This document shows positions 2,140 through 51,053 of a stretch of DNA of 51,365 nucleotides, piece after piece; within the stretch, counting starts at the first letter, position 1, and each line of letters opens with the position of its first letter. The stretch is taken from the NCBI GenBank assembly GCA_048886685.1, contig JBHLKM010000023.1:1-51365 (forward strand), read 5' to 3'. The notes under the pieces are model-generated. The model saw only the letters and a list, made by a program, of their open reading frames with translations. It made no database searches and was not told the origin of the DNA. Both the position numbers and the translations under genes were made by a program. The stretch comes from Candidatus Hodarchaeota archaeon. GTDB taxonomy: Archaea; Asgardarchaeota; Lokiarchaeia; Sigyniarchaeales; SOKP01.

Positions 2140-3222
2140 TTATAGACTAGGTGGACAACCTGCAATAAATTCTCCATGATAAAGGTTTTTGGAACAGTTC
2201 CCAAAGAGAAAGATTTTTCCTTCAATATCTTCTTTCACATTCATGTTTTTACCCATAATGAAAGAAATCCTCTCTTTCTTTAATCTTGATTTCAATATAC
2301 GTAAAATTAAACCTAATTTATAATGATTGTTGTACCTTTTTGGAACTAAATAGTACACTAATGCAGATACACAATAACTACAACAATCATTAGCATAAAT
2401 ATCAATTTTACCAAAGCTGAATTTATCTTTTGGTGCGTTCCACTTTGCTAAAGATTCATAATCTCCAATTATTTCATAATTAAGCGGTTCTTTTTCAATA
2501 AGCGTTTTTAAGTATGGGATTTTATTTATATCAAAACCTACAAGTTTTGCGCAAAAATCATCAATAATAACCGGGTTTTTACTACAGATTAATAAATTAA
2601 ATTTAAATTTTTTTGATAGAAAATCCCCTTCGCATTCTTGACATGTAATCGCATCCACTAAAGTTAATTCCGGTTTTAAATTCACAAGAGTAGATAAATG
2701 TTCATGTAAACCATCTCTATGAAATTTTTTCTTATCTGATCGATCCAATAAACCTTTTAAGTTTTTAACTGCACATGTTAAGCCCACTTGTCCGTGACCT
2801 TTTAATACTGGAAGGTTTATCAAAGATCTCCCTTCTAAAATTTCAGAAACCTTAAAGTTATTGTCGAATTTCTTAAATTTTGTTTGATAAATATCCACTA
2901 AAGAGACGTTATTATATTTTTTCTTTAATTTAGTATATCCGACATACTCGAATAACTCCATAGGATTTTCCAGATGTAAAGTTGGTCCCTCAGCAATAAT
3001 TATCTTTTTCGCATTATAATATTCATTCAATATCTCTACTACAGCCCTAATAATTCTGATATCAGTGATATGCCCAGATCCCGACTTAAATTTTGCTACG
3101 ATATTAGGTTTTAAAACAAATTCATTAGAACTAGGTTTAAAGTCTACTGTTTCTAAGCAATATTTAATTCTATTTTGTAAGTTTTTCGACTCAACGATTA
3201 CTAATTTATCCATTTTAACCAA
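2140..3222 (-). CDS. DUF362-domain (Fe-S) protein
   Basis: VLKPNI, AEG, INLPVLKGH..T.AVKNL.G, K.FH and a C-terminal GCPP. Confidence 0.85.
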   Translation of the reverse strand: MVKMDKLVIVESKNLQNRIKYCLETVDFKPSSNEFVLKPNIVAKFKSGSGHITDIRIIRAVVEILNEYYNAKKIIIAEGPTLHLENPMELFEYVGYTKLKKKYNNVSLVDIYQTKFKKFDNNFKVSEILEGRSLINLPVLKGHGQVGLTCAVKNLKGLLDRSDKKKFHRDGLHEHLSTLVNLKPELTLVDAITCQECEGDFLSKKFKFNLLICSKNPVIIDDFCAKLVGFDINKIPYLKTLIEKEPLNYEIIGDYESLAKWNAPKDKFSFGKIDIYANDCCSYCVSALVYYLVPKRYNNHYKLGLILRILKSRLKKERISFIMGKNMNVKEDIEGKIFLFGNCSKNLYHGEFIAGCPPSL

Positions 3223-3362
3223 CCCCGAAAAATAATTAAAGATATAAAATAATCAACAAAAGTTATTAGTTTTTATTTTAAAATCTGTAAATTATTTTTT
3301 TTATTTACTATTCAAAATAAATAAACACTAATTAATAAAGAAATCAGTAAAAAGAAATTCAG

Positions 3363-3404
3363 ATACTTTACAGTTTTAAAGTATATATCATTATTGTAAA
3401 GTAT
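3363..3404. promoter_or_regulatory. Putative operator of the HxlR regulator
   Basis: Inverted repeat ATACTTTA-n6-TAAAGTAT (3363-3384) plus a third half-site GTAAAGTAT (3396-3404), in the divergent promoter region. Confidence 0.55.
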
Positions 3405-3425
3405 AAAAAAAAATGTGAAATTAAC

Positions 3426-3848
3426 TTGGATGAAATCAACTCTAAAAAAATTAAACCTTTAGATAAATTACTAAAGGATTCAAGAAATTTAGTTAAAGAG
3501 CTAATGGATTCACATTTTGAAAATATTAAGCACGATGAAGAACGTAAAATTGTAGAAATGAAGTTCTTTTTAAAGACGTTTGAATTTATTAGAAAAAAAT
3601 GGAACGTACAAATATTATATGAATTAGAGATTCATTCAGGAATGAATTTTAATGAAATGATGCGTCATATGGAAGGTATCTCTTCACGTTCATTATCAGA
3701 TCGTCTTAAACAACTTGAGGATCTTAATTTAATAACAAGAACTGTCCAAGATGGCCGACCCCCTAAAGTTTTATACGAATTAAGCGAAAAAGGTCAAGGT
3801 ATTATCGAGCTAATCCAATTCATTATTCTTTATTTAACAGGGATATAA
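3426..3848 (+). CDS. HxlR-family winged-helix transcriptional regulator
   Basis: KKW...IL..L, FNE, GISSRSLSDRLKQLE, PPKVLYELSEKG. Confidence 0.9.
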   Translation: MDEINSKKIKPLDKLLKDSRNLVKELMDSHFENIKHDEERKIVEMKFFLKTFEFIRKKWNVQILYELEIHSGMNFNEMMRHMEGISSRSLSDRLKQLEDLNLITRTVQDGRPPKVLYELSEKGQGIIELIQFIILYLTGI

Positions 3849-4256: not shown

Positions 4257-4700
4257 ATGAAAACACTTAGGGAATCTATTGAAATAAATGTTCCTCCTGA
4301 AATTATTTGGGATTGGTTCTTACATATTGCAGAAAATTACCTTGAATGGCATCCTTCTTACATAAGAGCTAATTGGGAAACAGAGATAGTTAGTAAACTC
4401 GGCTCTATTTTGTATGCTGAAGAAGTTATTAATAAAGATTTTTTAAAAATGAGATCTATGGTGACGAAACTTATTCCAAACAGACTATATAGATTTAAGA
4501 CTTTAGGGGTTTTAAAACTCTTATTAGCAGGTGGTTCTTTTGAAATAGAACCTTCTGAAAATGGAAGCATTTTTACTGCAAATCTAGATTTTCATATGGG
4601 GAAATTACTTTCGAAACTTGTTAAGAAGAAAGTGCAACAAATATCCCAACACATGATCGAAGAAGGTCAAAATTTGAAAAAGATTTTGGAAAAACCTTAA
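4257..4700 (+). CDS. SRPBCC/START-fold protein (paralog of 47592-48032)
   Basis: SIEINVPPE.IWDW..Y.EWHP and EEG.NLKKILE; highly similar to the second copy. Confidence 0.75.
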   Translation: MKTLRESIEINVPPEIIWDWFLHIAENYLEWHPSYIRANWETEIVSKLGSILYAEEVINKDFLKMRSMVTKLIPNRLYRFKTLGVLKLLLAGGSFEIEPSENGSIFTANLDFHMGKLLSKLVKKKVQQISQHMIEEGQNLKKILEKP

Positions 4701-47591: not shown

Positions 47592-48032
47592 ATGAAAACC
47601 CTTAGAGAATCTATCAAAATTAATGTCTCTCCCGAAGTAATTTGGGATTGGTTCCAACATATAGCAGAAAATTACCTCGAATGGCATCCTTCTCATATAA
47701 AAGCTCATTGGGAAACAGAAACGGATAGTGAAATTGGCTCCATTTTGTATGCTGAAGAAGATATTAATGGAGAGTTTTTAAAAATGAGATCTAAGTTGAC
47801 TGAGCTTATTCCACACAGATTGTATAGATTTAAGACCGTAGGGGCTTTGAAACTCATCTTGGCTGGTGGTTCTTTTGAAATTAAACCTTCTGAAAATGGA
47901 AGTATCTTCACCGCAACTCTAGACTTTCACATGGGCAAATTGCTTTCGAAACTTGCTAAGAAGTCAGTACAAAAGATATCCCAACATATGATTGAAGAAG
48001 GACAAAATTTGAAACAGATTTTAGAAAAATAA
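47592..48032 (+). CDS. SRPBCC/START-fold protein (paralog of 4257-4700)
   Basis: Highly similar to the first copy. Confidence 0.75.
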   Translation: MKTLRESIKINVSPEVIWDWFQHIAENYLEWHPSHIKAHWETETDSEIGSILYAEEDINGEFLKMRSKLTELIPHRLYRFKTVGALKLILAGGSFEIKPSENGSIFTATLDFHMGKLLSKLAKKSVQKISQHMIEEGQNLKQILEK

Positions 48033-48228: not shown

Positions 48229-48741
48229 GTGAAATTAACGTGTCCAAAATGCGGAAAAGTTTATCAAAGAGGGGGTATCTATTATCAAAATCATATAAAA
48301 AGCTGTACTGGTAATGTACCTCTAAAAAAAACAAAGAGTACCTCAATTAAACCTAAAAAAGTTGAAATATCATCAACAATCTTGAAGAGATTAGATTCGA
48401 TCGAAAATCGATTGTATAATTTAGAACAAGGTTTTAGGGCATTGAAATTAACAAGAACGGTAAAATCTGATATTAAAAGTGAAGATCAATTATTAGAAAT
48501 TGTTAATCAAAAGATCCAAGAGCTATCACAGAAGACTTTAGGTATTCAAAAAGTACTTTTAAGAGATTTATATGAAATTATTAGTAAAGATTATAATATT
48601 TCAATAGACAATTTTTCTGAATATTTAATTAGACTATATAATAGGAATAAAATTCAATTAGAAGCTGGAATGAGTAGCGATAAATTTTCCATTGAAGATA
48701 ATTATGGAAACGTGTTCAAGCTCATCAGGATTCTGGATTAA
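48229..48741 (+). CDS. C2HC zinc finger + coiled coil + predicted winged-helix protein
   Basis: CPKC-x13-H-x3-C, heptad ILKRLDSIENRLYNLE, helical/wing C-terminus; GAGGTG RBS before the GTG start. Confidence 0.7.
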   Translation: MKLTCPKCGKVYQRGGIYYQNHIKSCTGNVPLKKTKSTSIKPKKVEISSTILKRLDSIENRLYNLEQGFRALKLTRTVKSDIKSEDQLLEIVNQKIQELSQKTLGIQKVLLRDLYEIISKDYNISIDNFSEYLIRLYNRNKIQLEAGMSSDKFSIEDNYGNVFKLIRILD

Positions 48742-48761
48742 ATTTCTTTAAGGGAATTCAA

Positions 48762-51053
48762 ATGGAAAAAGGGCTATTTTCAAAAAAATTATTTCCAGAT
48801 AAAAATAGAATCGATGAAATAATTCTTAGAAATCCAAGTCCATTTATTCTTCAAACTACCACTAAAAGCAGTATTCCAGAAGTTTTTGTAGGTAGAAATG
48901 ATGAAATTAAAATAATTGTTGAAACTATAAAAAGAGTAGTCGAAAATGAGAATTGCATTGCGCTATACATCGAAGGTGCTGGGGGTAGCGGTAAATCAAC
49001 ATTGTATAGTCATATTTTCAGAGCTATCAAACAAAAAAAATATCGATTAATAGATTTATATGAGGATTACAAACTTGATTCAGTGTTTATGGATTCTCCA
49101 GAAGACCCAGAATATTGTAATATGCTATATATTTATAGCGAAATTATTCAAAATTTGGGTAAAACTTCCTTTTTTGATGAATTATCATTTCTTACATTAA
49201 AAAAATTATTAGGAGTTATAGAATTCAAATATGGAGGAGAGAATCCATTAAAAGATGTGAAAGATATCGAAGAATATATTAATTTATCCGATTGTCATGA
49301 TAGATATAAAAAATGTATTGATATTATAAAAAAAAATTATAGAATCCTTCGATCAAAAGAAGATTTTAATTTTGAATGGCAATTTTTAGAGATACTCTTA
49401 TTGGTTCTAAATCCAGATTTTGACATCTCTATTAAAGCTATAAACGAATTAAGTGCTGTTGAATATGGAGTAGATAAATTTATCAAAAATAAAACAGATG
49501 CTTCTAAAATATTCAATATAGTTACAAATCTAATAGGGTGGTTATACGGTAATAAGAAAGTAGGAATTGTGGTAGGAATTGATAATATAGAATCTTTATT
49601 GGGTTCTAAAAAAGAGGAAAAATTCATTAATTTTATAAATATGCTCCTTGATTTTCGCAATAAAATTTCTCGGACTCTTCTAATAATTATTGGAACATCA
49701 TCTACATGGATGGAATTCATATCATTTTTAAAGAATAGTGATTATTACAACCAATTTCAAGGTTTATTTTCATCTAACAATATCTCATTGAAATTTTTGG
49801 AATTAGTCCAAGTTAAACAAATTGTTAAAAAACATTTAGATCGATTATATAAGGAGTATTCTGTTACTTTGCCTGTTGAATATTCATTATATCCTTTTAG
49901 CCCTGAGGCAATAGAATATCTTTACAGAATTTCTGCTAAGAATATCCGAAATGTTAAAATTTATTTAAATGATTATTGGGAGGAATTTCAGAAGTTAGGA
50001 ACAATAGAATATATTTCCGATGCTTTTAAAATAATGAAGAAATTCAAGAAAGATATAATTCTGGATGATTATGAAGTGGATATTTTGTTTGAAAAGTTGT
50101 GGAGTGAGAAAATTAAAACAACGGGAATGCGATCAGCTCTAGTGGAAAAAGCACTTCAAAATGCATTTGAAATATTGAGGACAGAACCTGATTATAATAT
50201 TTACAGCGTTGAAAATAACCCTCAAGTTAGAATAAAAGACAATTCAAGGATTAAAACAGTAAGACCAGATATTGTTGTTAGTTTAGCGTCAAAATACAAG
50301 ATAGGAGAAATGAAGAGAATTGAATTTCAGGTGAAAATTTATGAGAAAAAAAGTAGTGTTTTAAGAAGCCATATAGAGACATCAAAGAAATTACTGGAGC
50401 AAAAACAGATAGATTTTGTTTATTTTGTTACTACTTCTGACTTTTCAAAAACTTTAATTTCTGAATTAAAAGAAACTTATCCAGAAAGAATTGGAGGTGT
50501 TTACCCATTAACAAAAACTCAGCAAGCTTATTTGTCATTATTAGTATTTTATGAATCCATTTTTAACCAGAAGATAAATCCCTCCTATACAAAGATTTTA
50601 TTAAAGAATAGTTTAGGAATAGATATCGGAGAATTCTTCGAATTTATTAGCACTTTACCTAAGATATCAATAACTCCAACCATTCAACCGACCCTTGAAA
50701 CTTTTACACTTCAGATAGATGAAATACCTAAAGTTGAACTATCAGAAGCCATTCCTTCAGAAATTGTCAGTGAAGAAATCCCAATACAGGCAGAACAACA
50801 AGAATTAAAAAAGTCATATCCTCCTGCTATAGAGGATATCTTGTTGTTTATGTATAGGAGAACTGGAAGATTCAAAGGGCAAACCACATTTAATTTTTTA
50901 AAGGGAAAAATCTTGAATTTTAGGGATGAGGAAGTAAAAGAAGGATTTAATTGGTTGAAAAAGCAGAGTAATTACATAGATAATATTTCAAGTGCATCAA
51001 TAAAAGTTAATGATAATGGAATTCAACTTTTAAAGAGTCTAGGCAAAATATAA
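48762..51053 (+). CDS. AAA+/P-loop ATPase fused to an Mrr-like PD-(D/E)xK nuclease and a C-terminal wHTH
   Basis: FVGR, Walker A GAGGSGKS (aa 72), Walker B IVVGIDNIE (D274), YPF..EAI lid, E462/PD503/Q523-x-K525, FVTTSDFS. Confidence 0.78.
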   Translation: MEKGLFSKKLFPDKNRIDEIILRNPSPFILQTTTKSSIPEVFVGRNDEIKIIVETIKRVVENENCIALYIEGAGGSGKSTLYSHIFRAIKQKKYRLIDLYEDYKLDSVFMDSPEDPEYCNMLYIYSEIIQNLGKTSFFDELSFLTLKKLLGVIEFKYGGENPLKDVKDIEEYINLSDCHDRYKKCIDIIKKNYRILRSKEDFNFEWQFLEILLLVLNPDFDISIKAINELSAVEYGVDKFIKNKTDASKIFNIVTNLIGWLYGNKKVGIVVGIDNIESLLGSKKEEKFINFINMLLDFRNKISRTLLIIIGTSSTWMEFISFLKNSDYYNQFQGLFSSNNISLKFLELVQVKQIVKKHLDRLYKEYSVTLPVEYSLYPFSPEAIEYLYRISAKNIRNVKIYLNDYWEEFQKLGTIEYISDAFKIMKKFKKDIILDDYEVDILFEKLWSEKIKTTGMRSALVEKALQNAFEILRTEPDYNIYSVENNPQVRIKDNSRIKTVRPDIVVSLASKYKIGEMKRIEFQVKIYEKKSSVLRSHIETSKKLLEQKQIDFVYFVTTSDFSKTLISELKETYPERIGGVYPLTKTQQAYLSLLVFYESIFNQKINPSYTKILLKNSLGIDIGEFFEFISTLPKISITPTIQPTLETFTLQIDEIPKVELSEAIPSEIVSEEIPIQAEQQELKKSYPPAIEDILLFMYRRTGRFKGQTTFNFLKGKILNFRDEEVKEGFNWLKKQSNYIDNISSASIKVNDNGIQLLKSLGKI

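Follow-up and report, generated by a model that had tools for sequence, protein, structure and literature searches.

A two-gene locus from a Hodarchaeota genome encoding an ORC/Cdc6-type ATPase-nuclease and a putative coiled-coil adaptor: a candidate DNA-targeting conflict module

Conflict systems centered on Orc/Cdc6-type ATPases were described by the Aravind/Krishnan groups in a study based on comparative genomics only (NAR 2024; PMC10853773, section 22). In the mobile gene neighbourhoods presented there, an Orc/Cdc6 ATPase carries a restriction endonuclease (REase) domain inserted before a C-terminal winged helix-turn-helix (wHTH). The inserted REase is inactive, and the neighbourhoods also hold a separate active REase and HerA/FtsK; they were predicted to act against selfish elements (“HerA/FtsK capture”). 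The BrxC_BrxD family, too, has been described (PMC12839542) as made up of ORC/Cdc6 ATPases in which a helical insert follows strand 2. Here, we analyze two genes located near the end of contig JBHLKM010000023.1 of Candidatus Hodarchaeota archaeon, a stretch of 51,365 nt that is referred to below as the window. We conclude, with a probability of roughly 60%, that the pair is a DNA-targeting conflict (defence) module of accessory nature that moves horizontally.

The initial annotation, made from the DNA sequence, presented the pair as an undescribed system. This was too strong a term, since PMC10853773 describes the class of Orc/Cdc6 proteins with an inserted REase, and our profile search links the family to it. 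The gene layout was as annotated: both open reading frames (ORFs) were found on the forward strand, in the same orientation and separated by a 20-nt spacer. The GTG start codon of gene 1, at 48229, is preceded by a Shine-Dalgarno-like motif, GAGGTG.

48229..48741, + strand: gene 1, the small partner, 170 aa (ORF, GTG start)
48762..51053, + strand: gene 2, the ATPase-nuclease-wHTH protein, 763 aa (ORF)

An AlphaFold model of the large protein, built on a 54-sequence alignment, had pLDDT of 86 and pTM of 0.69. The model consists of an AAA+ core with a helical insert, a lid, an alpha/beta domain (residues 454-575), a linker, and a winged helix. Together with structure comparisons, it bore out the annotated reading of the protein as an ATPase followed by an Mrr-type PD-(D/E)xK nuclease, a linker, and a wHTH.

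48879..49796, + strand: ORC/Cdc6-clade AAA+ core, residues ~40-345 (AAA_16 matches, Foldseek)
49095..49547, + strand: all-helical insert of ~150 aa between ATPase strands 2 and 3, residues ~112-262 (DSSP on the model)
49797..50006, + strand: AAA+ lid, residues ~346-415, with YPFS and the NIR sensor-2 arginine R396
50121..50486, + strand: PD-(D/E)xK (Mrr-type) nuclease domain, residues ~454-575 (E462, D503, E521, Q523, K525)
50670..50810, + strand: disordered Glu/Pro/Ile-rich acidic linker, residues 637-683 (pLDDT <50, at 35-38)
50829..51038, + strand: C-terminal winged helix, residues 690-759 (model topology, pLDDT ~90)

When the whole model was compared with known structures using Foldseek, Cdc6/ORC subunits, RdrA of RADAR, PAB2304, and TnsC were retrieved at E-values of 3e-6 to 2e-4, with Cdc6/ORC at the top (3e-6). 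These matches place the ATPase in the ORC/Cdc6 clade. A PDB profile search also retrieved Cdc6/Orc4 (E 1e-4). The annotation “AAA+” is best narrowed to the ORC/Cdc6 (BrxD-like) clade. The Pfam family AAA_16 matched the large protein alone at E 4.5e-5, and matches to it were present in 23/23 family members searched. A profile search of 1.84 billion proteins yielded 68 cluster representatives at E<=1e-30; the nearest outgroup was Pfam family PF10923 (BrxC_BrxD), and the matches also included fusions of BrxD-like ATPases with Mrr_cat or NucS nucleases.

The Walker A motif of the large protein is G72-AGGSGKS-T80, and the Walker B motif, VVGID274, is located 195 aa past the P-loop. The annotated insertion of about 200 aa does exist as a helical insert; the 195 aa, however, is the distance between the two Walker motifs, and the true insert is about 150 aa long. 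Conservation was evaluated in a set of 54 large-protein members sharing 19-77% identity. Residues G75, G77, and K78 of Walker A and D274 of Walker B are invariant in all 54, and an acidic residue is found at position D274+1 or +3 in 47 of them. Further residues marked in the core are R299, T312, and Q331. The lid motif, YPFSPEAIEYLY...NIR, contributes P378, F379, Y386, and R396. Of these core and lid residues, P378 is invariant, while R299, Q331, F379, Y386, and R396 are near-invariant.

The order of nuclease motifs is E462...P502-D503...E521-F-Q523-V-K525...D551...VTTSDF. Residues 425-640 were modelled separately, with pLDDT of 93. Foldseek matched the nuclease-domain model to MspJI, AspBHI, Cap4, N.BspD6I, and AF1548 (E 2e-4 to 2e-3). 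VIA-align retrieved VC1899 (Z 9.1, root-mean-square deviation 3.2, 129 residues aligned), Can2 (Z 8.3), AF1548 (Z 8.2), and, further down, the LlaBIII Mrr-like domain and McrC (Z 7.4). The top structural matches are all nucleases of the restriction type, and nearly all 50 listed VIA-align entries are proteins with the restriction-endonuclease fold, at moderate Z values. The uniformity of this list, combined with the positions of the motifs, makes the PD-(D/E)xK assignment secure; residues 455-570 thus adopt the annotated fold. The nuclease-domain profile, searched against the PDB by sequence only, gave nothing meaningful; the fold was recognised by structure comparison alone. The Mrr_cat (PF04471) score of the window protein, 16.4 bits (E 0.01), is below the gathering threshold of 21, which a Thermoproteota relative, P0137, passes at 26.4 bits.

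The catalytic pattern is kept in 49/54 family members and is degenerate in the other five. The arrangement E462-D503-E521-x-Q523-x-K525 occurs in 36/54 members and E-D-(A/G)-x-E-x-K in 13/54; among the 49 intact members, the acidic residue is found at position 521 or 523, never at both. This alternation argues that the active site is kept under selection, and the inserted nuclease domain is apparently active, judging from its sequence. The more distant relatives P0116, P0256, and P0146 have a degenerate nuclease site.

The linker that follows the nuclease differs in length and sequence among homologues. The C-terminal domain has the topology alpha1-beta1-alpha2-alpha3-beta2-beta3 in the model, and matches to Pfam HTH_45 were obtained for 4/23 family members. 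A C-terminal winged helix is carried by all Orc/Cdc6 proteins.

Three segments can be distinguished in the small partner:

48241..48306, + strand: C2HC zinc finger (C5, C8, H22, C26), occupying the variable “head” position (read from the sequence)
48364..48462, + strand: coiled-coil segment, ~residues 46-78, RLDSIENRLYNLEQ... (family-profile PDB matches)
48481..48738, + strand: conserved C-terminal domain of ~85 aa, residues 85-170 (alignment of partners)

The C2HC finger carries a Lys/Ser/Thr-rich linker, which leads into a heptad-rich segment. The family-profile PDB matches to this segment were nearly all coiled coils (designed proteins, GCN4 fusions, HA2, and the stalks of fusion glycoproteins), and its weak Pfam matches were to HSBP1/FlaC. 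When 23 partners from different loci were aligned, just the coiled coil and the C-terminal domain were alignable; the latter is present in all 23, with G147 invariant and L136 and G160 near-invariant. Since single partner sequences gave weak matches to MCM winged-helix families of Pfam, the C-terminal domain is probably a winged helix. It was also considered as a copy of the large-protein wHTH, and this idea was rejected, as an hhalign comparison of the two families was non-significant (probability 0.5%). The heads of relatives include C2H2/zf-met fingers, SAP/Rho_N, an “ETGKNAIWR” motif, wHTH-like modules, and helix-hairpin-helix (HhH, in P0237). We infer an adaptor role for the small protein: one end, which is constant, would dock, and the other, exchangeable end would bind nucleic acid.

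Prediction of a complex between the small and large proteins gave a median ipSAE of 0.54, versus 0.00 for the best control, with at least 84% of contacts agreeing between runs and a partner pLDDT of at least 72. In calibration, the mark was reached by 58/80 solved complexes and 2/110 mismatched pairs, and scores of 0.60 or lower were characteristic of just 7 of those 80 solved complexes and of both mismatched pairs. The verdict was “weak support”, and we count the prediction neither for nor against binding of the two proteins.

The start of the small gene appears to be a recurrent source of annotation errors. For the partners at L042:9800-10360, L004:4557-5069, and L010:2899-3402, gene callers give proteins of 119-133 aa starting from an internal ATG. 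The zinc finger of each of the three is encoded in frame upstream, with CTG (L004 and L010) or possibly ATA (L042) replacing GTG. The small gene thus seems to habitually use non-ATG starts and to be truncated in public annotations; perhaps, such starts keep its level low.

The co-occurrence of the two genes, anticipated in the initial annotation, was observed at 27/28 distinct loci: in searches with hidden Markov models (HMMs), the small gene was located directly upstream of a full-length large gene at 16-30% identity, a count to be read with the caveat that the majority of these partners had gone into building the HMM. The rule holds at identities down to 16% for the small and 20% for the large protein. 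The partnerless exception, L028, belongs to the degenerate five, with the nuclease motif KHAED. Two upstream genes from outside the HMM training set also matched the partner family in hhalign comparisons, one from the bacterium Caldisericum exile (94%, E 1.3e-7) and one from Thermoproteota (78%, E 1.8e-5). By these sequence criteria, the small gene is a near-constant partner of the large gene, and the two form a conserved unit.

There are 29 close homologues of the large protein, and the named ones all come from Asgard metagenome-assembled genomes. In close homologues (60-90% identity), the small gene is located 20-22 nt upstream. Matches were found in 23/300 Asgard genomes, most of them at 20-31% identity and likewise with the small gene directly upstream; the taxonomy beyond Asgard rests on the source names of a few clusters. 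Within the genus of the source organism, 3/21 other genomes had a match, at 27-30% identity, and orthologues with 74-79% identity are found in other genera. Three congeners retain the flanking SRPBCC and Arf/Roc genes and have between them either nothing (~0.5 kb), a membrane-protein gene, or a reductase gene. Such differing contents between conserved flanks indicate that the site is a variable cargo slot. The pair is accessory rather than housekeeping, with a patchy and site-variable distribution, and the locus is not a universal single-copy one. No relatives were found in PLSDB plasmids, GenBank phages, or IMG/VR with a single-protein query, which in the case of IMG/VR covered close-relative patterns only.

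At other loci, a type III CRISPR-Cas cluster (Cas10, RAMP) adjoins the pair, or the neighbours are McrBC together with a TIR and a SLOG/DprA-like protein. A prokaryotic Argonaute (pAgo) is the neighbour at another locus, and Cas6/CRISPR-Cas genes are present at the Caldisericum locus. NurA-HerA genes are located beside the pair at four examined loci, co-directionally at L040 (14-nt gap) and L045 and adjacently at L004 and L046; at L040, a NucS-like gene follows downstream. The pair-adjacent type of HerA (~626 aa) was detected in 2/300 Asgard genomes, both of which also have the large gene, and was not found in the source genome. HerA of the source genome is 526 aa long, 30% identical to the pair-adjacent type, and encoded on a different contig. 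We read NurA-HerA as an optional add-on of the pair.

Several other features of these neighbourhoods were recorded. A protein of 1010 aa that combines a P-loop at the N terminus with an RNase_Zc3h12a (NYN) domain recurs, together with a 203-aa partner, beside the pair in several Asgard contigs (L001:3771-6812 and 3114-3725; L005:3596-7321; L006; L046:17951-18556); the two resemble a candidate NTPase-RNase conflict module in their own right. On the L001 contig, a 418-aa protein (L001:1714-2970) matches Mrr_cat at E 4.9e-5, above the Pfam cut-off, and the gene before it, called at 762 aa, runs off the locus start; both are additional signs of a nuclease-rich island. A cluster of methyltransferase, radical SAM/SPASM, and glycosyltransferase genes is located just downstream of the pair at L042:12713-16751 and L046:13268-17284. 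The pairs at these two loci are only ~24% identical and have different heads, which suggests a hotspot exchanging versions of the module. In Caldisericum exile, an ATPase_2-DUF234 protein (L054:9149-10531) is encoded 1.2 kb downstream of the pair homologue, inside the CRISPR-Cas locus, so that two ORC-like ATPases, both carrying a fused domain, are encoded side by side.

In the window, the pair is preceded by metabolic genes coding for an aminotransferase, an Old Yellow Enzyme (OYE) reductase, an alpha/beta hydrolase, and an SRPBCC/polyketide cyclase, in agreement with the initial annotation of the surroundings. Gene 2 is followed by 312 nt before the window ends. In a sister assembly with identical proteins, the pair is followed by a Roadblock/LC7 gene and then by a large Arf/Roc-PAS GTPase gene. 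The G+C content is 0.255-0.26 over 48-50 kb, versus 0.325-0.346 in the five preceding 1-kb windows. No tRNA, transposase, integrase, recombinase, or flanking direct or inverted repeats were detected at the locus, where just short AT-rich chance matches were seen. The large gene is single-copy in the source genome, and three true Orc1/Cdc6 genes are present elsewhere in it. The SRPBCC/polyketide-cyclase-like gene that immediately precedes the pair (47592-48032) has a second copy at 4257-4694, 43 kb apart, with 82% protein identity. An antisense ORF of 127 aa is contained within gene 2 (49337-49720, - strand), and similar ones of 102-108 aa occur in the L005 and L010 orthologues; the ORF is most likely a by-product of an AT-rich conserved coding sequence and not a gene.

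The reading as a conflict module draws on the domain architecture and folds, the conserved catalytic residues, the near-constant partner with its swapped heads, the accessory distribution and low G+C content, the defence genes found beside the pair at other loci, and the published prediction for Orc/Cdc6-REase proteins. A mechanism can be proposed for this module. The large protein would be an ORC/Cdc6-clade, BrxD-like AAA+ ATPase with an active Mrr-type nuclease inserted between the lid and the C-terminal winged helix. The small protein would be oligomeric, multimerising through its coiled coil; its C-terminal domain would dock on the ATPase, and its exchangeable head would touch nucleic acid. 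The adaptor may thereby hold or recruit the ATPase-nuclease on DNA. Binding of ATP could cause oligomerisation on the duplex, similar to that of ORC, TnsC, or RdrA, with the wHTH clamping the DNA, and this assembly would license the nuclease to cut invading DNA. At the minority of loci with accessory NurA-HerA, the cut DNA may be resected or degraded. More tentatively, and at somewhat less than even odds, we suggest that the pair represents a distinct immune family, mainly Asgard with sporadic relatives in Thermoproteota and bacteria (Caldisericum), in which a trimeric or dimeric coiled-coil adaptor with interchangeable heads programs an ORC-like AAA+ ring on foreign DNA and fires the built-in Mrr-type nuclease, with optional finishing by NurA-HerA. 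Such a family could be an “active, self-contained” ancestor of Orc/Cdc6-iREase capture systems and a prokaryotic cousin of reported eukaryotic ORC-NTPase-REase effectors.

A function in DNA repair or end processing, in which the pair would recognise damaged or broken DNA, cooperate with NurA-HerA-type resection, and serve its own genome, appears unlikely. It would agree with the NurA-HerA genes directly beside the pair at four loci, with the NucS-like gene at L040, and with the SAP, HhH, and zinc-finger heads, which are non-sequence-specific nucleic-acid binders. The adjacent HerA is, however, a rare accessory paralogue, most genomes, including most of those in the genus, do not have the pair, and the other neighbours are CRISPR-Cas, McrBC/TIR, and pAgo genes. 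We also rate it as quite unlikely that the pair belongs to a selfish mobile element, for instance as a TnsC/MuB-like target selector coupled to a homing or addiction nuclease and maintained because its loss is toxic. TnsC and other transposition ATPases share the AAA+ clade and are among the fold matches, the insertion site is variable and low in G+C, and versions with ~24% identity adjoin the same methyltransferase-radical SAM-glycosyltransferase cluster in two genomes. Against this stand the lack of transposase, integrase, tRNA, or convincing terminal repeats at the locus, the single copy of the large gene in the genome, and the negative single-protein searches of the phage, plasmid, and IMG/VR collections. 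We consider it very improbable that the large protein is a specialised Orc1/Cdc6 paralogue with a part in replication, the organisation of the chromosome, or transcription control, for which the small protein would serve as loader or organiser: the ORC/Cdc6-type AAA+ and terminal wHTH domains and the weak MCM winged-helix matches of single partners would fit, whereas the match to TIGR02928 (Orc1/Cdc6), located at the P-loop, is weak (26 bits vs. the cut-off of 181), true Orc1/Cdc6 proteins are encoded elsewhere in the genome, the distribution is patchy and site-variable, and the active site of the nuclease is conserved.

Several observations weigh against a DNA-targeting conflict module as well. 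An acidic residue beside Walker B is missing from 7/54 members, and residue 275 of the window protein itself is Asn; the ATPase may consequently be a slow switch and not a motor. The winged-helix call for the C-terminal domain of the partner is a weak one, made from MCM-type matches only. The link to defence-gene neighbours is qualitative, and the linkage to NurA-HerA could equally indicate DNA-end processing or repair. At the locus studied here, the pair lies outside any defence island, among metabolic, Roadblock/LC7, and Arf/Roc-PAS GTPase genes. Finally, PADLOC-DB v2 and Pfam gave no significant system-level match for either protein.

Archaeal immunity, that of Asgard above all, is poorly charted, and the pair, with just two genes and clear catalytic residues, is a compact candidate overlooked by standard tools. 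What the system senses could be learned from the adaptors, which form a natural series with swapped heads. The pair connects ORC/Cdc6-type ATPases outside replication with the Orc/Cdc6-REase conflict systems that have been predicted and with NurA-HerA modules of the accessory kind. If active, it would show how, among the prokaryotes most closely related to eukaryotes, a replication-initiator-like ATPase can become a gated nuclease.

As far as known systems are concerned, the pair does not belong to BREX, McrBC, or RADAR, nor does it encode a replication initiator. The initial annotation had already set it apart from BREX, McrBC, and Avs, and PADLOC does not recognise it. Short and weak PADLOC matches to DrmB (E 1.8e-4) and mad8 (E 2e-3), over the zinc-finger/coiled-coil and P-loop regions, were rejected. 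BrxD/BrxC (PF10923) is the Pfam family nearest to the outgroup matches, which are proteins of 410-440 aa (E 1e-10 to 1e-20); weak PF10923 matches were obtained for 3/23 family members and not for the window protein. In contrast to the gene 2 product, BrxD has neither a nuclease nor a wHTH. No PglZ or PglX was found among the neighbours at any examined locus, and no BrxHI or other BREX gene was found nearby.

DUF234 contains a restriction-endonuclease-like fold and a wHTH, and archaeal single-chain ATPases of PF01637 that carry it belong to the same broad AAA+ clade as the large protein. We know of no conserved small partner of these PF01637-DUF234 proteins. Pyrococcus abyssi PAB2304 (PDB 2qen), one of them, ranked 14th in the Foldseek comparison. 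Weak matches to ATPase_2 were seen in 5/23 family members and to DUF234 in none. PF01637-DUF234 ATPases are not known to have a large helical insert, and their sequence likeness to the gene 2 product is confined to the P-loop region. McrBC and other NTP-dependent type IV enzymes are similar in outline, since an AAA+ NTPase ring gates a PD-(D/E)xK nuclease in combination with a separate DNA-reading module, and the catalytic domains of McrC, MspJI, and AspBHI structurally match the nuclease domain described here. McrB, however, belongs to another AAA+ clade (AAA_5, GTP-specific) and has the nuclease as a separate subunit; library searches with either protein gave no AAA_5, McrB, or McrC family matches. 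The likeness to heptameric RdrA of RADAR (PDB 8hr8; E 4e-6 in the whole-model Foldseek comparison) is confined to the ATPase. RdrA differs in having no nuclease, and there is no RdrB deaminase here.

The greatest likeness is to the class described in PMC10853773. Common to both are an ORC/Cdc6-clade AAA+ module, an REase-fold domain placed between this module and the C-terminal wHTH, and a mobile, patchy distribution with HerA at some loci; the published class sometimes includes an extra fast-evolving DNA-binding protein. Our profile also reaches proteins organised as in that class, namely P0116, where a degenerate QxT site is followed by a PDDEXK_1-HerA fusion, and P0256, where a degenerate site is combined with a C-terminal NucS nuclease. 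The inserted nuclease of the family studied here, unlike that of the published class, retains its catalytic residues in 49/54 members. No HerA/FtsK or separate REase was found in the window or in the downstream 8 kb of the sister assembly, and most loci are without HerA. The constant partner also differs: here, it consists of a small head, a coiled coil, and a single C-terminal domain, whereas the partner in PMC10853773 is a DndG/SspB-like protein bearing 2-4 wHTHs, and a coiled-coil adaptor is not described there. The Orc/Cdc6-(inactive)REase-wHTH systems are the closest published class, and we regard the present family as a variant of that predicted kind.

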